Assembly (NCBI RefSeq): GCF_037042905.1
Contig: NC_087245.1
Span: 9,984,001 to 10,048,000 of the forward strand
Direction: 5' to 3'
From: Lytechinus pictus
Lineage: Eukaryota
Length of the DNA: 64,000 nt
The notes below the pieces were generated by a model. That model was not told the origin of the DNA. It saw only the letters and a program-made list of their open reading frames with translations, and did not search any database. Position 1 is the first letter of the stretch. Each line of letters starts with the position of its first letter. Shown here one piece after another: positions 4,777-48,102 of this stretch. A program made the position numbers and the translations under genes.

Positions 4777-4903
4777 ATGGCAACGATGGAAGGCCTTCTG
4801 CCTGGACCATCATCATCATCTTCATCTTCGTCATCTCTAGGAGCTAAGCGCAAGCTACCGGTCGAGTGGGAGCTTCGAGATAGAACAGAGCCAGGAGCAT
4901 TAG
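4777..4903 (+). CDS. Receptor coding exon 1 (A/B domain; exon starts 4690): [42 protein letters not shown]
   Basis: Acceptor tccttgcag at 4689, in-frame upstream TAG at 4735, ACTATGG start context. The TAG|GTAAGT donor is phase 1 and matches the next exon. Confidence 0.75.
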
Positions 4904-24200: not shown

Positions 24201-25895
24201 ATTTCTGATTGCTCATATGGTTGGCTGGTGAAGGAAGATAAGGAGTGATTTAATAAGCACTACTCAAAAAATGGAGACATGATTTTGAGAAGGCTGGCCA
24301 ATTTTAGAGGTTCTCACGATGTCATTGTCATTACTTTTTCTATGAAAGAGCTGTCCAACTACAGATCTGTCAGAAAATGGCCAGTTGTGAATAAATTGTA
24401 GCAATATTTCCTAAAAGTAAACAATGTTTGACAACAACAGATGTCTTTATATATGCAAATATCTTAGGCTGTCACTGTCAGTGTGTATTTTGCTAAACCA
24501 TATGAAAATTCCAGTCTGCACACCTTTTTTAAATATAAAGTTAGCCCAACAACAAATGAATTATGGAATTAATGATTTCTTTATTTATGAATGATAATAT
24601 ATGCCTGATTATTTCTGGTTAGTAAAACAAACCACACAATTAATATCAAACAGTGCCTAATGTTCATGAGCAATAGGAAACATTGGAAAAAATGAATGAT
24701 TAGATTCAAAAGAGTTTTTTTTAGTGACCAATAAAATGAAACTTTGACGATGCATTTTGTTTAATTATCTATTTATTTATTTTTCCTTTCTAGATTTTGA
24801 TAAAGACATGAACATCTTGTGTCAGGTATGTGGAGATAAAGCATCGGGGTTTCACTATGGAGTTCATTCATGCGAAGGATGTAAGGTGAGATCATGAAGT
24901 AATTCTAAGCATTGCCATTTTAATGATTTCAAGAAAAAAGTTAACCCCAAATTGCTTTTTGAATAGGTACTGTAGGTGATGAGTGTCCATGAGCGTTTGA
25001 GATATAATTCTGCAAACAAACCCCCAAAAGGAGAGGGTCAACTTTGTAAGAAACTCAATAACCCATTTTCTTTGTTCCAATGTACATGTAAATGATAGTT
25101 TATGAAAAGGTGATAATCATGCTCATACCCGCTTGGATATGGTTTTCTTTCCCTGGTGGTCTAGTTATATTTTTCTGGTGTTTCTATTAAGATTTATCTT
25201 GCTACCTTAATCTCAGTTATATATATATACCTTGCCCTTTTAGTAATGTATGAGGTGACCATTCTTGTGCTATTACAAAGAAACAAGTTTTATTGTAACA
25301 ACTTTTGAGTTAACAAGTCAGAAGCAAAAATTGGATATGACATCATATTTTGTGCTGATTTTTTTTATGGAATGAAAATTGGGGCATGAAAACAAAATTA
25401 TTACCGATTAACCAGGTTTCTTAGTTTTCATTGTTTACCCAGGAAATAAAAACTGGGTCAACGGCCCACTTTTTAACGCAAGAATGTTTCCTCTCCACGC
25501 TAGCTCTTGGCCCTTCACCCCACCCCCTTGATATAATCTGCCCCGCCCCCCTTGGCGTTGGTGGCGTCCATCCAAGAAGACTATCATTCCATCTGATTGT
25601 GCTATATTAATACTTCATGCACATCCTGCTTGTTATTGTATCATATAAACAGTACAATAGATGATAAGCAACTTCTTATACGAAGATATGTTTGTTATTA
25701 AAGACCATCTATACCTTTGGTAATAATAAGGTGAACTATAACATTTAGCTATTTATCATTCTGTGATCATTCGCAACCTTTCAAAAAGTGACAATTTATC
25801 AGTTTTCATTGTGGATTTTGTGAAAAGTTGAATTTCAAATCAGATTTAGTGCCCTCTCTCTGTACTATTTGTCACTTTTAAAGTAAACTCCCTCA

Positions 25896-37900: not shown

Positions 37901-40900
37901 TTGGACAAGAATTTCTTTAAAATAACGTTGTCCTAAATGTACAAGGCTGAAGCAATAATTTCTACCCCCTTTTGAAATCTACCTTGGGTATCAGTGTGGG
38001 TAAAGATAATATCTTTTATTGATTAAGGGTCTATTTGGGGATTATTCCTTTCGAAGCAAAATTGTTTGACCCTTCTCAGTGAAAATGTACAAGAATATTA
38101 AAAAATAACATTTAGAAAACATTGAAAATTATTTTTGTGAACAAGTATTTTAGATCAGCATGAGACCTGCTTATAATTTTTCAATTAAAGTATGGAGTAT
38201 TTCATGGTGTTTTGTCAGATAACTAATGTTAACCTCATTTTAGTGATATGATTTGGGTAATTAATCATGATTTACTGTCGTAATGGGCCTGTCTTCTTAA
38301 ACCAGTTCTATTTTGGCTGAATTAGCTGCGTAATCTCAGGGTGCAGAAGTTTCAAAGGAAATAGAATTTTACGAGAGAAGTGTAAGTAGAACAGCTCTTA
38401 TATTGTGAAATGTTTTTGGCTCTCCCCCCAGCAGATTAGCATTTGCTTAAGCTCATAAAAGTTTGATATAAACATAACCCCTGTGACTGCATCTCTGACA
38501 CCGTTCTCATTACGCTTTGTAAAACTGGTTTACTGGAAACCGGCTCAGGAAACAAGTTAGGAAGATCGCTTTGATCCCACTTGATCACATGAAAGTGGTT
38601 TACAAAATCACTTCACGTAAAGCGATCTTGTTGCTATGGAAACGCTCTCAGTGGGGTGACACGTTTCGCGCGAAATTTGAAACCGCAGCGTAGGCATTCT
38701 ACACCTGTCGTGTGGAGAAGCGCGCTCAACATGTGCGAAGATCTCTCCACGAAGAACAGTTGTGTCCTCACTTGCTCTAAAACCAGTTTATCGAGGCGAA
38801 GCGATCTTGAAAACTACATCGCGAGGTGGTTTTCCGAACTGCTTTGGAAGATCGCTTCCAAGACCGCTTCGACTGATCTCACTACGCTTTAAACTAGTGT
38901 CCTCTAAACTAGTTTTAGGAACGTAGTGAGAATGGTGTCTTACTCTGTATGTTCCCAAACTCTTTCTTCCTTCTAACAAGAAATGTACCATATAACCTTC
39001 ATGTTCTAATGGACAGAAATATGTGGACCTACAAATAAAAATGGAATACCTTTGAAAATTCATCACCAGTATAGGATAAATTTTCTGTTTCTTCAACTCA
39101 TTTTAATTTAATTTTTGTTTAACCATTATGTATTCAATGAAAGTTTGGCTTGCTTCATGTATAATTGTAATTAAAAGTATCCTTTGCAATCTCATCCATA
39201 AACCCTGCCCTTATGCACAAATGGCAATTCCTCCATTATTTTACATGATTACTTTCCATAGAACTGCTCATTGAGTTTACCTCCAGACCCTGTCTTCATG
39301 GAGGAAAGTGTGTGGAACAGATGTGTAGAAAATTGTGATAACAACATCTTACCAAAATGATATAGTAATTATCATCATTATGCTGACAAGTGACAAATGT
39401 TATGGTCAATAACCACTTCCTCAACAATCCTCTTCTCCTTTGCTTGTTTTTCATCTCCATTGGGTTTCTTCCACAGAACTGTATAGCTCAACCTAACAGA
39501 CCTTGCCCCTATAGAGGAAAGTGTCTGATGCAAAGAATTAATACAATGGTGGTAATTTACCATCTAAACCAAATGATAACCAACATTGCTGTAATGGTCA
39601 ATAATCTACCTCTTACATCTCCATTACTTTTTTTTCTGCATAGGGTTTCTTCCGCAGAACTGTACAACACAATCTTACCTACAGACCTTGCCCTAATGGA
39701 GGAAAATGTGTGATTCAACGTAAGAATAGAAACCAATGTCAGTCTTGTAGACTAAGGAAGTGCATTCTCATGGGCATGTCCAAAAATGGTACGTAAAATA
39801 TGTAACTGTTATGCATTTGACATTCTGAATTGTAGTTATGACTTTGTCAATAGTACTTTAAAATATATTTCTTTTCAATTCATGAACATGTAGAGTCGTA
39901 TTTCACTTTACTTCCGGTTCAAGCCTTTATTCGATATAGCCTTTGAACATATATGTTTTACTGATTTCTTTTAACAAGTTTACTGAAACTTGGTCTGCAC
40001 TCCCATTTGAATAGCATTTGTGTATATATGCACTGATAATGGGAATTCTATTAGCTACCAATGCTGTTGGTGTTATCTCCCAAAGGTATTTTTAATCATC
40101 TTAATTTTGGAGATTAAATCTTTTGTTTTTAGACACCCAGTTACAGTAAAATATATATATGTTTTTTATAATACTTTTTATCTTTTGTAAATTGTTCTGT
40201 GTCATGCGGTTTAAAAATATCTTGTTTTCTTCCAGCTGTTCGTTTTGGAAGGATGTCTAAACGAGAAAAGATGAAACTGACTCAGGTGATGAAGGAGATT
40301 GCAAACAAGAGTGATGATATTCCTATCAGGGATGAAAAACCTCTTGACCTGAGCCGACCTCCAAGTCAAGAAGCTATGGTTGCTAGTGACGATGGGCCCC
40401 TAGCAAGCAATGATTCTCAACAGTGTGCAATATCAGACATTAAAGGCAGCTTGGAGGATATGAAAGATGTGGGGAGGGAGTCCAGTAATAGTAATGACAG
40501 AGTACAGTGTAAACCTGACTGGTCATCTTCAAAGACTGATGGAGCTGAACTGAAACACAATGGTAGATGGGGTGAGTGCAATGGGAGAAATGGCTCTAGT
40601 GTTGGGAAGGCTGTTCAAGACATTCACATTGATGAGAAAAAGACAAGCATTCAGGACTTGCTTCTTACCCAGTATTGTAGTAGTCAAATGAATGGTTATA
40701 TTCCAAACAATGGACTAAATGGCTTGCAGAGTGGTGTCCAACGAAGCATCAAGGTTGAGAGAGACATTCAGAATGATTGCCATGGTTACTCAGGACACCA
40801 CCCTCATCTTAATGAAAGAATATCATCAGTTATCAAGAAGGAAGATCAAACTCCTACTTATCATGACTTTGATAAAGGCATCCATCATCACATGGCTTCA

Positions 40901-43900
40901 GACAAGAAACAATATCTCCTACCCCGACGCAAACAGATTGCACGCTTACATCATGATGAAGAAGTCAGAAGGAACCATCAGAATTTCAGCAACAGTTACC
41001 ACGGCAATCCATATTCCAATCATCACTTTCATCAAATGCCTGAGAAGTTACAGAATATGAGTCTCGGGAGTATCAAATCCCCACCCATGAATGGACTGTA
41101 TGAGAATGGTGTTCAACACAGCTTTGAAACCAGGTTAAACAGCACCAAGTCACACTTAGAACTGAAGAATGGTTACAATCATTCAAAGTTACAACACTCA
41201 CTAGTCAATCCACACCAGAATGGAAGGATACCCAACGGCTGCACTCCAGATAACACAAGACTGTCCTACCACCCTGAGACCAATCACAGAAATAGATTAA
41301 GAGCTCCTAGAGTACTTGGTGGAGGTCATAATCCTCATATGCTTCATGTCCTTCAAGGAATGGGTCTGGTGGATTCCTTGAGCAAGGCATATTGTACAGA
41401 GATTGATGCTCAGTTCTCAAGTCTAGAGGAAATACTTAGAGTGGCAATCAAGAAGCACCTACGAAGTGAACAACACACTGCAGCTGATAACAAAGAGGTA
41501 AGATGAATAAAACAAATTATGCATTGTCCTGAGTGACTGTGACTCTCGCCTTCCAATAAAAGATTAAGAAGTTCAGGGGAGGGTTTAATCACAAGACGTG
41601 TCAGGTGTTTTATTGGACAAGTCCTGTTTTATCCGACAGTTACCGTAGAAACATTGCTCTCAACCAGTAAAAATCCAGGAAAATTGTCAGATCTGACAAC
41701 TTGTCAGACAAAATATTGATGAAACCTCCCCAGTTAAGCAAGTGCATGTAAGCTATCCATGTTTTCAATTCGCTGTGCCCTGGTGAAGTGAATGGTAACT
41801 TGCTGTGGTTATATTATCTACACATAAAGCCAAGGTGATATTATGTTAATCCTTTGGAGCTCACAGAGACACAAGTAATGTATGATGGTGGTCCCCAAGT
41901 CTGCGCACCTAACAATTTGAGTTAAGATTTAACATAATTTTTTTTTTCAAAATCTTTCAGATAATAATGTTTCTTAGATTATTATGAGTAAGTGTACCAA
42001 ATATCTCATAAAAATTTGAAAGAAATATAGGATTTTCTTGGAAAAAACCTCGGGCACTCATTTTCAGATTGAAAAAAAAATTGTACCCCATGTCTGCGCA
42101 CCAATTCACTATGCACACGATTTGAGGATTTTGATAAGAAAGGCTGCATTTCGAGGCCGTCACATGGTATTCCCAAAATTTATTATTTATCCACCATTTT
42201 GAGTCGGATTCTTTAATGAATATCTTTCTGTGTATTGCATGTGTAAAGTTTGTGTTCGTTGCGTATCTTCTTTTACTAAAATCGCGCAGATACGTGTGTG
42301 CGCAGACAAGGGGGACTGTGCAGACTTGGGGGAACTTGCCATATATCATGTGATTGTAAGCTAGTGAGAAGCTCAATGTTTCATGTGTATGTTTCTCTGG
42401 TGTTGAATAAGCATGCACCTACCTTTTTTTAAGCAAAAAATATCTTGTGCATACTGTTTTAGATTTACAGAAAGATTCTTGTTTCTGCTTGGCACTTTTC
42501 ATAATCAATTATCACTTTTTTACTCTTTTAACTCATTCGTTGAATATTATCCTTCTAGATAGGGCCTAATTTCAAGTTTTATTATCAAGCATTTTGTACC
42601 ACAATGTTTCAAAGATATACTATTAAACATGTAGTGAAATTATGAAAGAAATAATCATTTGTCATTCAATTTCAACCTAATTGCTTTTTAGATGTTTGAT
42701 TATCCCTTTATTCACAACATATCTTCCATTTTTTACAATACTGGCAAGGATTTATGCAGGCATGTATCTGATTTTCCGGGTGATTGAACCTGTAAATATA
42801 AAACATTCAACTCATACAATTCGTATCACATAATAAGTTGTTGTAACTACATATAATATACAGTATAAACTCGTGATTGATTATTTCATCCTGATTTTTT
42901 AATGCCAAATTTTAAACCATGTATTAATTTCTATTTCTACTCCACCAGACTATTGGTTCCAACGGTGTATGCGGTATACCCATGGAGGTAACGGTTGGAG
43001 ATAAAGAAGAGGCTTTCTGTGATCGATTTGCTCCTATCATTAGTCGTATCGTCAGCTTTGCAAAAGCTATAGAAGGCTTTGAAGAGATCCCACATGAAGA
43101 CCAGGTATATGAAGTTGCAATTGATGAGTTTCATGTCATCGTTAAGGGCTAAATTCAGGGGATTTTTAGAATAATCCATGGACCAGTAGAGATTATTAGA
43201 AGTTTTAAGCTGGGAGGAAGATTTGTACAATGATCCTGATGATTCCCGGACTGTCAGGAATTAATGGCCTTAATATGTTCACTAAGATGTAATTTGTATA
43301 CATGTGCTGCTGCCCCCTCCCTTAACCCCCCAGAATATGGATTTGTATGCAATCTAAAACATTCATCCTATGTTTCTCTAATCTTCAAGATTTTGTATAT
43401 GAATGTATATACAATGTACTTCAAATCCCCTTTCTACCATTGCTTTATATTGATATCATGTTTTATTCATAATTTAGCTAACATTATTAAAAGCCGGCTG
43501 TTTTGAAGTGCTTCTCCTACAACTCAGTCAAATCCTTGACCCAGAGAGTGAGGCCATCGTGTTCTCTAATGGAGAGAAGTTTCACAGAGGTCTCCTCCAA
43601 AAATCAGGTGGGTATATCTTATGTATTAAAACAAGTTCAAGGACAATTCCCCATACTCTGTATTAAACAATTATCTAAAATGTAAAATGAAATTATATGT
43701 TATCCTTGGAATCCTTTTAGAAATCATTGTTGCCGCCATTATCAAAAGGTAAACTCCAGTTGTATTAACAATAAACAATATTTCAAGAAAAAGTTTTTTA
43801 ATGTAAGTTTTTACCATAATGGATCAATGTCTATTAAGTAATTATGTAGTTTACATCAACCAAACATAGCCAGATAATGACATTGGTGTATGAAATTGCA

Positions 43901-45141
43901 CAAAAGTCACATATAGGCCTCTGTATTATTACTAGGAAAGAGACCCATCTACTGGCAGAATCCTGATTATTTCGCACTGAGCAATTAGTACTGAGCAATT
44001 ACCCTTATTTTACAAGAATCATTTGACTCATTCTTTATACAGTGACATTTGCTCTGCTCTTAATATCTCAGAGGGCATAGGGTTAGAGTTTGGATTGTAG
44101 TAGAGTTTGTTATTCAGAATAATGTTAAGATAAGGATAAGGGTTTATTCAGTTTTTGAAGTTGGGTTTTATATTTTACATAAAGTGCAAATTTTTCGTTG
44201 GCGCAATTGTTGCCGTAGCAAATGTCATAAAACCATTTATACATACAAACACTTAGGTGATGATTTTACTAGATTTTTTAAATTTTTGTGAATTTTAACT
44301 CAGCTGGAATATGTATTCAAGTATTTTTTTCCCCATCTTCTACTTTTATCGTTTGCAGATGTTGGTGATCTAGTTGTTGCATTGTCCAAGATTGCTTCAC
44401 AACTAAATCAACTAAACTTATCTTTACCAGAGAGGGCGCTATTACAAGCATCTGTATTAGTAGCATCAGGTGATTTGTTTATTACAACAGTTTGATATGG
44501 ATCTTCAGTATAGGATTTTTTTATTCATGATTGGATACTTCTAATGAATTCCAATAAAATGTTTTAAGAGGGTGTGGTTGTGTTAAAGATGTTATGATTC
44601 CTGTTTGCCTAACAAACTATGCACAAGGTTGATATGACTTGTATTTTATGTCTTCTACTGTTGCAATTTGATAGCTCTTTTTCTTACTGGTTCAAACTAA
44701 AAAAATAAATTGCAAGGTAAATTCAATGCCCCCACCCCACCCCTACAAGATGTCTATTAAAATATACATATGAAATTCATTCTCTTCATAGTTACATGAA
44801 TTGCTTGTAAATATTTAAAAAATGCATTTTTACTACTGACTACATATGAATAAATCTCTCTTTTCAAATAATGCAAAATTACAGACATTCCAAAGATTCT
44901 GAATCATATATAACTCCTTGGTTTTTTAATTGTTTATTTTCCTGTAGATCGGAAGGGTATCCAGAATGTTGATGAGGTACGTAGCCTCCAGACACATCTT
45001 CTAGGTGTCCTAGAGAAGTTCCTCTATGCTACACATGCTCCTGATGCACTTGTCTTTCACAAGTGTCTTCAAGTAGTCCTGGACCTAAGGGTTCTCAACC
45101 ACAAGTACTCAGAAAAGCTCCTGGCCCATCAAAAGGATTAG
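4777..45141 (+). CDS. Nuclear hormone receptor, NR1 subfamily, Rev-erb/E75 (NR1D)-like; spliced CDS of 8 exons, 738 aa
   Basis: C4 zinc fingers [85 protein letters not shown] signature [30 protein letters not shown]-terminus [19 protein letters not shown] with no AF-2 helix. All introns are GT-AG with matching phases (1,0,1,0,0,1,1) and the total of 2217 nt is divisible by 3. Confidence 0.9.
5224..5612. mobile_element. Kolobok-like non-autonomous DNA element
   Basis: TTAA|AGGTGAATGAAAC ... GTTTCATTCTTCT|TTAA, with internal motifs shared with the elements at 34005, 50236 and 56240. Confidence 0.6.
7260..7432. mobile_element. Palindromic MITE with CACTG termini (EnSpm/CMC-like)
   Basis: TA|CACTGTAAAAA...TTTTTACAGTG|TA; almost the whole element is self-complementary. 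Confidence 0.85.
9861..10047. mobile_element. MITE with ~55-bp TIRs
   Basis: cggtcacatttgctct...cgagtcgaaaacag pairs with ctgttttcgactcg...agagcaaatgtgaccg. Confidence 0.85.
14541..15027. mobile_element. Non-autonomous DNA transposon (~490 bp)
   Basis: TIRs aggtggtttcaaactgcctcga and tcgaggcggtctgaaaccacct; internal direct repeat ttgctttcacactgccaaaa occurs twice. Confidence 0.8.
15953..16109. mobile_element. MITE (CWG-flanked, Harbinger-like)
   Basis: ctgggccctgtaacacaaaggttagc pairs with gctaacgtttatgttacagggcccag. Confidence 0.75.
17283..17357. promoter_or_regulatory. Cluster of three RORE/RevRE monomer sites
   Basis: AATATAGGTCA (17283), AAAATAGGTCA (17305) and TAATTGGGTCA (minus strand, 17347-17357) all match WAWNTRGGTCA. 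Confidence 0.55.
22852..23114. mobile_element. hAT-like MITE
   Basis: TIRs cactggtggatccagg and cctggatccgcccctg; 8-bp TSD tacaacta/tataacta. Confidence 0.75.
23177..23437. mobile_element. Related GC-tract MITE
   Basis: caggtgtggatc...gatcaacgcctg flanked by tctga on both sides; shares gaaatgtccttcatttt with its neighbour. Confidence 0.6.
24794..24885 (+). CDS. Receptor coding exon 2: first zinc finger and P-box ([31 protein letters not shown])
   Basis: Canonical NR zinc finger 1, ttttcctttctag acceptor, AAG|GTGAG donor. Confidence 0.97.
26998..27432. mobile_element. DNA transposon family copy 1 (paralog of 38497-38939)
   Basis: Shares aaactggtttactggaaac, gaagatcgctttg, ttgttgctatgg and other blocks with the 38.5-kb copy. 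Confidence 0.8.
28730..28932 (-). mobile_element. tRNA-derived SINE
   Basis: The minus strand has A box TGGTCTAGCGG and B box GGTTCGATTCC, followed by a tgtgctgcactcgacccaggtga core. A degraded + strand relative lies near 21370-21490. Confidence 0.75.
31071..31290 (-). repeat. (AAT/GAT)n microsatellite forming the tail of a truncated SINE/LINE 3' end
   Basis: The repeat abuts gcatttatatagcgcc; the same tail motif occurs at ~18960 and ~58320. Confidence 0.75.
31633..32975. repeat. Tandem duplication of two ~670-bp units (31633-32298 and 32299-32975)
   Basis: Long near-identical blocks, e.g. gaaagtcattaataacaaaaactgacactagctactgaaactgaaagg at ~31943 and ~32608. Confidence 0.95.
34005..35408. 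mobile_element. Kolobok-like element with a nested insertion
   Basis: aggggaagttca...tgaacttcccct|TTAA; a homologous segment lies in the opposite orientation at ~57480-58200. Confidence 0.75.
34288..35164. mobile_element. Nested TIR element (~880 bp, CpG-rich core)
   Basis: tattgccggacac pairs with gtgtccggtaata; internal inverted gattccggacgcgc. Confidence 0.65.
35961..36176. mobile_element. Palindromic MITE fragment
   Basis: Near-perfect ~60-bp inverted repeat spanning 36044-36176. Confidence 0.75.
38497..38939. mobile_element. DNA transposon family copy 2
   Basis: TIRs gacaccgttctcattacg and cgtagtgagaatggtgtc. Confidence 0.85.
38960..39643 (+). pseudogene. Array of decayed partial copies of receptor exon 3 with flanking intron
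   Basis: The copy at 39463 reads [25 protein letters not shown] and the copy at ~39253 reads [20 protein letters not shown]. Weaker copies lie at ~39188 (NLIHKPCPY) and ~38979 ([15 protein letters not shown]). Confidence 0.8.
39644..39788 (+). CDS. Receptor coding exon 3: second zinc finger and D-box
   Basis: Encodes [48 protein letters not shown], with ctgcatag acceptor and G|GTACGT donor. Confidence 0.97.
40236..41497 (+). CDS. Receptor coding exon 4: CTE ([12 protein letters not shown]), long hinge and LBD helix 1
   Basis: Lies within ORF 40199-41506, with ttttcttccag acceptor and GAG|GTAAGA donor. Confidence 0.93.
41577..41730. mobile_element. CAG-flanked MITE (second copy at ~53811-53977)
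   Basis: Both copies share ttgtcagatctgacaac and tcctgttttatccgaca, in opposite orientations. Confidence 0.75.
41883..42341. mobile_element. TA-flanked TG...CA TIR element
   Basis: ccccaagtctgcgcac pairs with gtgcagacttgggg; tctgcgca motifs repeat internally. Confidence 0.65.
42949..43104 (+). CDS. Receptor coding exon 5: LBD helices 3-4
   Basis: Encodes [52 protein letters not shown]; phase 0/0. Confidence 0.93.
43478..43607 (+). CDS. Receptor coding exon 6: LBD helix 5 and beta region
   Basis: Encodes [43 protein letters not shown], with aatttag acceptor and G|GTGGGT donor. Confidence 0.93.
44359..44469 (+). CDS. Receptor coding exon 7: LBD helices 7-8
   Basis: Encodes [37 protein letters not shown], with gtttgcag acceptor; phase 1/1. 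Confidence 0.92.
44948..45141 (+). CDS. Receptor coding exon 8: LBD helices 9-11 and stop
   Basis: Encodes [64 protein letters not shown], with cctgtag acceptor. Confidence 0.93.
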
Positions 45142-45688
45142 CCTACTCCGTTTCCTAGCCTACCAGGCAGACTAAATGTACATGTTCCAAAGTTACCAAA
45201 TAGATTGAGGTAGTTCTTAGTTTGGTCCTCCAGATACAACATACTGGGATCCTGGTCCTTGACCTATAAGATGAACCTGTTCTTGTTCCCGATTATATTG
45301 TAGATTAGACCGACGTTGCTATCGGCCAATTTGTATTGATGATGATATGTACTTTAATCAAGAACCTTGTGAACTTATTTTCATCACAGTGGAACCTATA
45401 TTCACCTTGTTTTATGATATCTCTTGGACCAATATTCATGAAACCTTAAGAAGCTTAGATGTCACCTAAATGTGTTGGGGCCGATTTATAATGGTTTCAT
45501 GAATATAGACCAGGAAATGTATTGAATTTTTATTCAATATCCATCAAAATGATGGATTGTGATGAACTGTGTCCCCATCAGTAAACCATGTCAGGCAAGG
45601 TTTTCAGACTATTTGCAGATGCTTTTCTATTGGAACACATCCGGAGAACTCTATTCACGTATCAAAATTACATAAATATTCTGACCAG

Positions 45689-45858
45689 GGTGGTGTTTCA
45701 TAAAGCTGTTCGTAAAGTTACGCACAACTTTACGTATGACTGAAACCTGTTCTTTGGTGCTAATTCAGTTACATAGGGATACCATTTAGCACAAGAAATG
45801 TTCACCAGTCGTGCGTAAAGTCATTCGTAACTTACAGACAGCTTTATGAAATGGGCCC
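45689..45858. mobile_element. MITE in the putative 3' UTR
   Basis: tttcataaagctgt pairs with acagctttatgaaa; CAG/CTG flanks. Confidence 0.75.
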
Positions 45859-48102
45859 CTGGAATAGAAAAAAATGTTGTACTTAAGCTATGTAAACCTA
45901 TTCCTCCAAACTTGCCAATAAAATATCTTTCCATATGTGACAGGTGATAGTTTTATCCCCAATGTATCACATAACATCAGGCTAACAATTATGGCCATAT
46001 CTAGGTGGTGTTGATATGAATTTATCATATTATCTTGCCCACCTAATTTGTTACCAGTTTGTTATAGATATAAATTTCTCAAACTCATGTCTTGTATACA
46101 ACTCTATTATTGAATTTACATAAAATTACCTTTTGCCAGCTGAGTAGGCTTATACGTTCAAAGTCTTTCATGCCATCATTTTATTAGATGAATGCAGACT
46201 ATATGAGGCAACTTGATGTATATGTGAATCCATGTTATAGAAAGTTTGTTTTTAAAGATCCGTAAGATAGTATAATGTTTTATTTTAATGTTTAATCCCT
46301 TTTTCTAAAATTTGCCATTTTATTTTTTATTTCTGCCAAATTGCAGTATTTGCTACCGGAGTGTGGAATGCTTTAAGATAGTTGCCATACCAAAGATAAT
46401 ATTTGCCTTTTGTGCTTAATAGTTGCAATGAGTGTTCACTCATTTTTATCCCAAATACAGTGATTTTATAGATCATGATAACCATAGGTGAATCTGTGTA
46501 GTATCAGTCTGTAAATGCATTGTAATACAAATGCAGTAAAAGTGCATTATATCTTGTACATTTTGTTGTTGAACGCCGTAAGGAATTTTTATTATTATTT
46601 TTTTGCAAAATGCTTTCCTAACTTAAGCTGCTTTAAACATTTATGCTGCATGTTTATATGTGCTGCTCAAATATATGACTGCTGTCAGTCGGCATTGTTA
46701 CATCTGTCAACCATGGTAACTTCCCTATCAGCTGTCATTGTGTTGATAAATCTTGGTATGCTGCCCATTAAGTATAGCTCCCTCTAGAATTGGAAAATAA
46801 ATAATTGAAAATGATGAGTGCAAACACTAACTCTGTATCCCATAGAGTTCAGTGGATGAAAGGCTAGGGATACTTGGGTTATTGAAAAAAAAAAAATTCT
46901 AGTCACATTTGATTTGATTACGGTCATTTCTGATGAGAGTATGTATGTATGAATTGACATAGTAGACCCAGCCAGCTGACCCAAAATCTAGTCATTTTTA
47001 CTATTTCTTTTTAAAGAGTGTTCTGTTCACATTTATGATTAAAATTACCATATAGCTGGACAAACGAAGAGAGCTATGTTAATTTTTCTAAGCTTATGGT
47101 TTTATTCAATTTCATTTTATGGTAATTTGCTTTGCTTGTTTTCTCTTCATTTTTTCTCTGTCTCGCTATCTCTTTCTCATTCTCTTTTACTCTTCCTCCC
47201 TTCCCTCTTCCCTTTCCCTCATATATGAGTAGTTTATTTGCAATAAGATTGAAAAACAGGGTATCTAAATGTTACATAAATTTAATATTTTTATTTAGGT
47301 ATTACCTATTTTGATAAAGGTTTCATCATTTCCATGTAGAGTTGAAACCAAATATTTTCTCTTTTTTCTAAGTCATGAAGATCTTTACTGAGAACAGACT
47401 TCCAGAAAGTCATTAAATGAAGCACATAGTGAATGGTACTAAAAAGGCAAACAAATCCTGCTTAAAATCGAAGTTATTTATTAACCAATGTTATGATGCA
47501 AAAAATTGACTATTCAGATGTTACCCATTTATATGAACTGGGTTGTATTGGTACAAGATGTTTTCATGTGGAATTAATGTGGAAAGCTATCCATAGTGGT
47601 GTTTTCAGTAATCTCCTGTATTGTAAATTATGTTTATAATGATTTTTTCTTCAAATAATTGCAGAAGGAAATGGTTTCTTCCACTAGTATATGTAATTCA
47701 TAAAATGATGAGTAATTAATTTACTTTCTGTATTTCTGTTTTCTGTTTTTGTACATGGTACAATGGGAAGTAGAGTTGTTTATGTATGCACATGGCTTTT
47801 GAAAGTGTGTTTTTATTTAATGTTTACTATTTTGTAGAGAAATACATACAATTGTGAAAAATGATCAGGATAAAATTCAAAGTATCTTGCTACCATTTAA
47901 TGGAAGAGAATTTTCATTTTCATTTGTTTCCTATCATATGTTTAGTTCAATTTGTATAAAATGTTTTGAGGATATAAGCTTACCACTAGATTTCAAATAT
48001 GTGTCTCTTCTGCCTGTTACCCATGAGGTGGATGAACATTAATGATACCTACATGATTTAGGCAAGTGAGTTTTTTTTCACTTCTTGCCTTATCTGCTTA
48101 CC

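Follow-up and report, generated by a model that had tools for sequence, protein, structure and literature searches.

In the human nuclear receptor Rev-erb-beta, Fe(III) heme is held between His568 and Cys384, the latter being part of a Cys-Pro motif, and His568 corresponds to His602 of Rev-erb-alpha (ligand numbering from PMC2652392). Among heme-binding Rev-erb/E75 receptors, the helix-11 His ligand is numbered His568, His602 or His574. Exchange of His602 for Phe essentially abolished heme binding of Rev-erb (PMC2652392). The present analysis concerns the gene LOC129254950 of the sea urchin Lytechinus pictus, located on the forward strand of a stretch of 64,000 nucleotides (contig NC_087245.1, positions 9,984,001 to 10,048,000), which is termed the window and to which all coordinates refer. 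The gene, which is probably the echinoderm ortholog of Rev-erb, encodes a receptor with Tyr at the position of the heme-ligating His and without the Cys-Pro motif. On balance, its sequence and predicted fold point to a heme-free, corepressor-binding repressor that has lost coordinate heme binding.

Positions 45082-45141 (+) translate into the last 19 residues of the receptor. The ligand-binding domain (LBD) was aligned with human Rev-erb-beta (3CQV) over 173 columns without gaps (HMMER, E 1e-32), and Tyr728 fell on the His of NNMHSEELL, that is on Rev-erb-beta His568 and Rev-erb-alpha His602. The two codons in question are:

45106..45108, + strand: TAC codon of Tyr728, in the column of Rev-erb-beta His568 (ungapped LBD alignment)
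45100..45102, + strand: CAC codon of His726 (the "shifted His"), in the column of Rev-erb-beta residue 566, not conserved (His in 4 of 12 echinoderm orthologs)

A contig over 44946-45712 differed from the window at no letter, and a second contig over 44946-45684 differed at two (45235 and 45474); TAC was unchanged in both. No variant at 45106-45108 was present among the variant rows listed, with a raw-read depth of 2-4 at this site. An error of sequencing or assembly at the Tyr codon was ruled out by the two unchanged contigs together with the presence of Tyr in six other species. The stop codon lies 10 residues past the His column, as in all echinoderm orthologs printed, and in the AlphaFold model (623 residues) helix 11 stops at residue 618, which leaves five residues to the C-terminus and no helix 12. 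A hidden exon encoding helix 12 was rejected as well: the joints listed from RNA reads or contigs, at low read depth, included no further one using the exon 7 donor, and the orthologs end at the same place. Thus, a preliminary description of the window, made from the DNA letters only, was correct in reporting Tyr (TAC) at the heme-ligating position, a second His two residues upstream and the lack of helix 12, and neither the contigs nor the six orthologs carried the His (CAC) that it had considered as a possible correction.

Echinoderm and vertebrate proteins both stop directly after helix 11 (45109-45141 in the window), whereas amphioxus and hemichordate Rev-erbs and E75 are long-tailed, which suggests that the tail was lost separately in echinoderms and in vertebrates.

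Searches and look-ups covered all five echinoderm classes and yielded a single receptor for each species. The ligand column contained Tyr in 7 of the 12 orthologs (two Lytechinus species, S. purpuratus, two Diadema species, Holothuria and Amphiura) and His in the remaining five (Patiria, Acanthaster and two Asterias, representing three sea-star genera, and the crinoid Antedon). The Tyr bearers therefore span three classes, namely urchins, sea cucumber and brittle star, and the conservation in related species for which the preliminary description had asked is present; its other scenario, a clade that never had this His, does not agree with the His of crinoid and sea stars. Phylogeny was assessed with a first tree of 127 out of 170 proteins (both domains required, near-duplicates removed) and with a careful IQ-TREE tree of 68 hand-picked rows and 268 columns from which the His/Tyr column had been removed. 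In the latter, the nine echinoderm rows formed one clade (100/99) that followed the class tree, with the crinoid branching first, followed by sea cucumber plus urchins and by brittle star plus sea stars. The distribution of His and Tyr needs two changes on this tree, which indicates that both residues are tolerated. As Holothuria and Amphiura share LNQKYAE exactly, a single gain of Tyr with a return to His in sea stars is favoured over two gains. The S. purpuratus records LOC115917889 and LOC756187 (P0002 and P0006) are near-identical, fall in one cluster and probably represent two haplotypes; PMC10250714 may therefore count the gene twice among its thyroxine (T4)-induced receptors.

The adjacent His726 had been proposed as a shifted heme ligand. 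Among the 12 orthologs, His at this position is limited to the two Lytechinus and the two Diadema species, and the position is occupied by Leu in S. purpuratus, the LBD of which is 94% identical, and by Gln in the sea cucumber and the brittle star, all three bearing Tyr in the ligand column. A helix residue at i-2 points about 200 degrees away, and the AlphaFold model shows a single helix in this segment, so that the side chain would face away from the site of Tyr728. A takeover of the iron by His726 is accordingly hardly credible, and this part of the preliminary description could not be upheld.

The other heme ligand, the loss of which the preliminary description had missed, was examined by comparison with 149 canonical Rev-erb/E75 rows (33 of the 36 rows of the Rev-erb/E75 group in the first tree plus 116 added rows). 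These comprise hemichordates, amphioxus, vertebrates, a nemertean and a priapulid, most of them being arthropod E75, and they are not independent of each other. Of the 149 canonical rows, 147 contained the Cys-Pro motif (Cys384-Pro385, before helix 3), whereas none of the 12 echinoderm rows did, not even the five with His; the His568 column contained His in all 149 canonical rows versus 5 of 12 echinoderm rows. Because the motif is missing even from the echinoderms that keep His, we infer that the Cys384-type thiolate was lost first and that the His changed later.

Fifteen heme contacts (W402, F405, F409, V413, F443, L446, M447, F450, F454, G478, G480, L482, M486, L572 and F575), taken from the main text of 10.1101/2024.04.13.589008 and from PMC2652392, were compared in the same way. 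Most of them are kept or conservatively replaced, including the hydrophobic pocket residues F405, F409, F443, L446, G480 and L482, and positions 402, 454, 478 and 575 are changed. All 12 echinoderms have Glu, Asp or Pro at position 402, where 140 of the 149 canonical rows carry Leu, Trp, Met or Val. At position 454, Phe occurs throughout the canonical rows (149 of 149) but in a single echinoderm of the 12, the crinoid, and 10 of the 12 echinoderms have a charged residue (Asp, Glu or Lys) at position 478. Urchins carry His (His735, 45127-45129) at the Phe575 heme-contact position, two turns past Tyr728, and this position is Tyr in sea stars, brittle star and crinoid. The residues of the L. pictus receptor concerned are:

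42970-42972, + strand (exon 5): codon of Cys550, which is followed by Gly
43006-43008, + strand (exon 5): Glu562, at the Trp402 position
43535-43537, + strand (exon 6): Leu614, at the Phe454 position
codon split by an intron, + strand (exon 7): Asp638, at the Gly478 position

It was also considered whether heme could still be bound through Tyr728 as a tyrosinate, either five-coordinate or with the echinoid Cys550 on the opposite side, in which case Fe(III) would be favoured and responses to nitric oxide (NO) as well as to carbon monoxide (CO) would be changed or damped. Tyr is one of five known axial heme ligands, if a minority one (PMC3059290), it stands exactly in the ligand column and it is kept in seven species of three classes. 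Four of the five echinoid models have, 15 residues ahead of Phe405, a Cys in the context Cys-Gly-Ile/Leu-Pro, and Lys at position 571, predicted by Pardee et al. to attract the heme propionates, is present in 8 of 12 orthologs. However, this Cys is absent from the sea cucumber and the brittle star, which bear Tyr nonetheless, and its segment is a low-confidence loop in the AlphaFold model (predicted local distance difference test score, pLDDT, under 50). The complete lack of Cys-Pro, the acidic residues at the Trp402 and Gly478 contacts and the loss of Phe454 argue against it as well, as does a tunicate-group row with Phe, a residue unable to ligate iron, at the same site. Tyrosinate ligation, suggested in the preliminary description, is therefore weakened to the point of being improbable. 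In its boldest form, to be regarded as similarly improbable, echinozoan and brittle-star Rev-erbs would be the first tyrosinate heme nuclear receptors, possibly with Cys/Tyr ligation in urchins and with ascidians having arrived there independently, and a corepressor-nuclear receptor (CoRNR)-like helix would have replaced the Cys384 loop, capping the pocket or docking in the groove as a substitute for helix 12. A co-fold of two LBD copies with heme, in which the alignment was not used, gave a score of 0.00 and counts neither way.

The tunicate-group rows (Phallusia mammillata REV-ERB P0068, P0079 and P0074 and Oikopleura dioica P0183) contained no Cys-Pro (0/4), and their His column is occupied by Tyr, Tyr and Phe and, in Oikopleura, by His. 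They formed a clade separate from the echinoderms (98/96) with a His-bearing first branch. Since the tunicate and the echinoderm clade each have such a first branch, Tyr arose independently in tunicates. In three further rows (P0064, P0066 and P0103, the group around the second Glandiceps receptor), Cys-Pro is lacking, the His column is occupied by Asn and helix 12 is not clearly discernible; these rows were left out of the canonical set. Across these sequences, the His is constant where Cys-Pro is present and variable where Cys-Pro is gone.

The pocket might, as a further explanation, have switched from heme to another lipophilic ligand to which Tyr728 hydrogen-bonds and which tunes corepressor binding. 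The same helix-11 position provides a hydrogen-bonding residue in PPAR, ROR, TR and VDR. In the first tree, His at this column is general to NR1 (88 of 127 rows, including PPAR-, ROR-, TR- and E78-like rows), which deprives it of the value as a heme marker that the preliminary description had given to it. Urchin LBDs show strong conservation (94% and 86% identity), the hydrophobic pocket lining is kept, and echinoderms consistently have new polar residues at 402 and 478. Moreover, a synthetic non-porphyrin agonist occupies the pocket of Rev-erb-alpha (PMC9681850). On the other hand, there is no candidate ligand, apo Rev-erb fills the pocket with its own side chains (PMC2652392), and a His/Tyr site that changed both ways or twice fits relaxed constraint equally well. 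We consider a ligand switch rather unlikely.

According to the preferred reading, a heme-free repressor, the Cys384-type thiolate loop would have been lost on the echinoderm stem. His568, its role as a ligand gone, would then have been exchanged through a single-base substitution (CAC/TAC) that took place two times, or one time with His regained later in sea stars. Like apo-Rev-erb, the receptor would bind RORE-type half sites and recruit NCoR/SMRT through the groove of helices 3-5, which is expected to be open because helix 12 is missing, and aromatic side chains including Tyr728 would pack the empty pocket. In agreement with such a state, the pocket of apo Rev-erb is filled by its own aromatic side chains (PMC2652392) and apo Rev-erb-beta binds NCoR interaction domain 1 (ID1) at about 0.5 uM (10.1101/2020.05.05.079277). 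The output would be set by the level of transcription, which thyroxine raises in larvae, rather than by heme, NO or CO; in S. purpuratus, T4 induced the ortholog LOC756187 in 23- and 27-day larvae, with log fold changes of 1.49 and 1.72 (PMC10250714). The loss of heme/gas sensing proposed in the preliminary description fits the evidence and probably describes the receptor best.

Several points weigh against this reading. The Cys384Ala/His568Ala double mutant of Rev-erb-beta retains some heme binding (PMC2652392), most hydrophobic pocket residues of the echinoderm receptor are kept, and four of the five echinoid models have the Cys before Phe405. All six echinozoan species examined, and a brittle star, have kept Tyr, even though His could be regained by a single transition. 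The canonical rows used as reference are dominated by the non-independent arthropod E75 proteins, and Rev-erb orthology itself is not decided by the topology tests given below. Finally, cell studies found heme to be required for NCoR binding and repression (10.1101/2020.05.05.079277, PMC9681850), and a heme-free form would need compensation for this heme-dependent NCoR binding.

The corepressor groove was compared among the orthologs. All 12 echinoderm orthologs retain the groove residues F409, K421, L438, K439 and L572, position 417 is V or I, position 435 is V or L, and position 575 is changed to His, Tyr or Gly. A second element was found in the linker between helices 1 and 3:

41423..41449, + strand: nonamer L518-I526 (L-E-x-I-L-x-x-A-I/V), fitting the CoRNR-box consensus, present in 12 of 12 echinoderm orthologs

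The linker around it is otherwise poorly conserved. The nonamer resembles LEDIIRKAL of NCoR ID2 (motif and CoRNR consensus from 10.1101/2024.04.13.589008). Over the corresponding 90 residues of other receptors it occurred in 6 of 125, and 5% of shuffles matched; its conservation is one inherited event, spotted after the fact, and is only suggestive. In the AlphaFold model the nonamer prolongs helix 1 as an amphipathic helix, the corresponding part of Rev-erb being a loop. When the model was aligned structurally to 3CQV, the first pair, as read from the range ends, was model residue 403 (Leu518) with Rev-erb-beta 384, a weak hint that the predicted helix lies where the Cys loop was. It may cap the pocket or occupy the corepressor groove.

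The assignment of the gene to the nuclear receptor family NR1 is supported by a C4 zinc finger DNA-binding domain (DBD) with a CEGCKG P-box and a hormone-receptor LBD. Pfam zf-C4 and Hormone_recep were above the cut-off in the L. variegatus ortholog, and Hormone_recep in the NCBI protein P0005, which lacks the DBD. The C-terminal extension AVRFGRMSK is present. RFGR extensions serve monomeric RORE binding, and as ROR- and PPAR-like rows have the motif too, it does not discriminate NR1D. The E78-, ROR- and PPAR-like labels of the tree rows are our own, given on the basis of sequence motifs. The free tree assigned the echinoderm clade to a 43-row group (88/89) that also comprises Rev-erb/E75, tunicate Rev-erb and nine rows of other receptors (the nine-row group), and whose inner branches are unsupported. 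In approximately unbiased (AU) tests, grouping with hemichordate Rev-erb (p 0.49, log-likelihood cost 0.01), with the nine-row NR1 group, which includes Ptychodera and Lingula receptors (p 0.36), and with the PPAR-like rows (p 0.24, a grouping not favoured by the free tree) were all allowed. E78 (NR1E) identity was rejected (p 0.002, four E78-like rows), and so was ROR/HR3 (NR1F) identity (p 0.004), helix 12 being absent. This helix, which PPAR (NR1C) possesses, is lacking in the L. pictus receptor; 17-44 residues follow the matched domain in the PPAR-like rows and in those of the nine-row group. Outside echinoderms, the highest LBD identity among the rows printed was 43% to amphioxus Rev-erb, compared with 28-32% to the E78-like and ROR-like rows and P0065. 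The top six PDB matches of the LBD were Rev-erb. Fold comparison gave Rev-erb Z values of 21.7 and 21.4, only about 1.5 above other receptors; Foldseek with the whole model ranked Rev-erb-alpha first, almost tied with RAR; and ESM Atlas returned generic hormone-receptor clusters only. An NR1D assignment is favoured by the LBD identity, by the lack of gaps in the alignment and by the absence of helix 12, and the gene is probably the echinoderm Rev-erb ortholog, orthology being likely though unproven. The label "Rev-erb/E75-like" of the preliminary description fits the evidence, and the tree for which it had called places the receptor in the group containing Rev-erb/E75, on inner branches without support.

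Instead of an ortholog, the gene might be a paralog that echinoderms inherited from an adjacent NR1C/D lineage without any history of heme binding, a canonical Cys/His Rev-erb being present elsewhere in the urchin genome. This alternative concerns history and overlaps with the heme-free and the non-heme-ligand explanations. It is allowed by the AU tests for the nine-row group and the PPAR-like rows and by the unsupported branches within the 43-row group. PMC10250714 gives LOC756187 no firm chordate ortholog and labels another S. purpuratus gene, LOC580686, as "NR1D1 (Rev-Erb)". The same work calls LOC578618 "Rev-Erb" although it is named hr3, which shows that these labels are loose. Furthermore, the best trees put the clade among Rev-erb/E75 rows, grouping it with hemichordate Rev-erb costs almost nothing, and the short C-terminus and ungapped alignment to Rev-erb-beta are at odds with the tails of the nine-row group and the PPAR-like rows. 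In a word-limited search with the hemichordate Rev-erb LBD, the 120 matches listed out of 198 contained no named echinoderm, which speaks only weakly for absence, as many of the rows carry no species name. A paralog is therefore possible but not probable.

The gene model comprises 738 amino acids in eight exons, with GT-AG intron ends and no internal stop in the spliced frame. It is identical to the L. variegatus ortholog at 727 of 738 residues, and P0005 corresponds to its last 623 residues. The coding exons are:

4777..4903, + strand: coding exon 1, start ATG and A/B region (tblastn 100% over 42 amino acids to the S. purpuratus ortholog; its phase-1 GT donor leads into the 738-residue frame)
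24794..24885, + strand: exon 2, first zinc finger, ending with the residues CEGCK of the P-box (from the sequence)
39644..39788, + strand: exon 3, second zinc finger (joint to exon 4 in two contigs)
40236..41497, + strand: exon 4, C-terminal extension AVRFGRMSK, long low-confidence hinge and LBD helix 1
42949..43104, + strand: exon 5, loop before helix 3 without Cys-Pro, and helix 3
43478..43607, + strand: exon 6, helices 4-5 and beta-turn
44359..44469, + strand: exon 7, helices 7-8
44948..45141, + strand: coding part of exon 8, helices 9-11 and stop, without helix 12

The last five splice joints, at the 3' side, were visible in RNA reads or contigs, and the first two are based on the identity with L. 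variegatus. In P0007 (S. purpuratus isoform X2), the annotation skips the exon matching 44359-44469 in frame, so that 37 residues are missing from helices 7-8; the joints listed for the L. pictus RNA runs did not include this one. The true exon 3 (second zinc finger) has two decayed copies of itself in tandem directly upstream (39434-39546 and approximately 39250-39325, +), with 75% identity across 117 nt and 84% across 38 nt. In the copy closer to the exon, the AG acceptor is gone and 4 nt are deleted, and RNA depth there is near zero. Contigs run at least 2.8 kb beyond the stop (45142-48000, +), suggesting a long 3' untranslated region. A repeat element is located near 45690-45860, with further repeats at 41620-42340 and around 44050.

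No account of the heme-ligand residues, or of their loss, in echinoderm or tunicate Rev-erb was found in the literature covered, from which subscription papers were largely absent. PMC10250714 noted the gene as a T4-induced Rev-erb-like receptor without firm ortholog, PMC11093393 mentions sea star Rev-erb-like genes by name only, and PMC4109947 describes Ciona rev-erb as NO-regulated, the word "heme" being absent from its available part; the available parts of PMC7827873 and PMC9939569 added nothing on ligands. The gene is already annotated, and it is the analysis of its ligand site that had no counterpart in the literature covered. Loss of a ligand site being a common path, the finding is only moderately surprising. 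Nevertheless, the need of Rev-erb for heme in repression, and heme/gas sensing as its ancestral and essential function, have been argued mainly from engineered mutants (His602Phe, Cys/His to Ala). The receptors compared here offer a graded natural series from hemichordates (Cys and His) through crinoid and sea stars (His only) to urchins, sea cucumber and brittle star (neither), with tunicates as an independent replicate, which makes the question of how a heme-free Rev-erb stays functional directly testable. Effects of NO on sea urchin or ascidian metamorphosis should not be read as direct gas sensing by Rev-erb. If Tyr728 did ligate iron, this would represent a new coordination chemistry for nuclear receptors.

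Compared with known systems, the L. pictus receptor is a real variant, evolutionarily conserved, of a receptor type already known; it is most likely a Rev-erb without heme coordination and has a parallel in tunicates. Human Rev-erb-beta (NR1D2; 3CQV, 2V7C, 6WMQ) and Rev-erb-alpha (NR1D1; 3N00, 8D8I) are its best solved-structure matches in both sequence and fold. They share with it the absence of helix 12, an end about 10 residues past the His column and the groove residues. Relative to Rev-erb-beta, the L. pictus receptor has Tyr instead of His568, lacks Cys384-Pro385 and carries Glu for Trp402, Leu for Phe454, Asp for Gly478 and His for Phe575. Amphioxus Rev-erb (P0026), the Glandiceps and Ptychodera Rev-erbs (P0027, P0192) and arthropod E75 belong to the same broad clade, have AVRFGR and are 66% identical in the DBD and 35-43% in the LBD, but keep both Cys-Pro and His and have tails of 56 to about 1000 residues. 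The echinoderm orthologs with His (Patiria, Acanthaster, two Asterias and Antedon) belong to the same clade as the L. pictus protein and share the lack of Cys-Pro and of helix 12 as well as the linker nonamer, differing from it by His instead of Tyr at the ligand column. Tunicate REV-ERB has in common with it the lack of Cys-Pro and, in part, Tyr at the His column, whereas Trp402 is kept in three of four tunicate rows and their LBD is only 30% identical to that of L. pictus.

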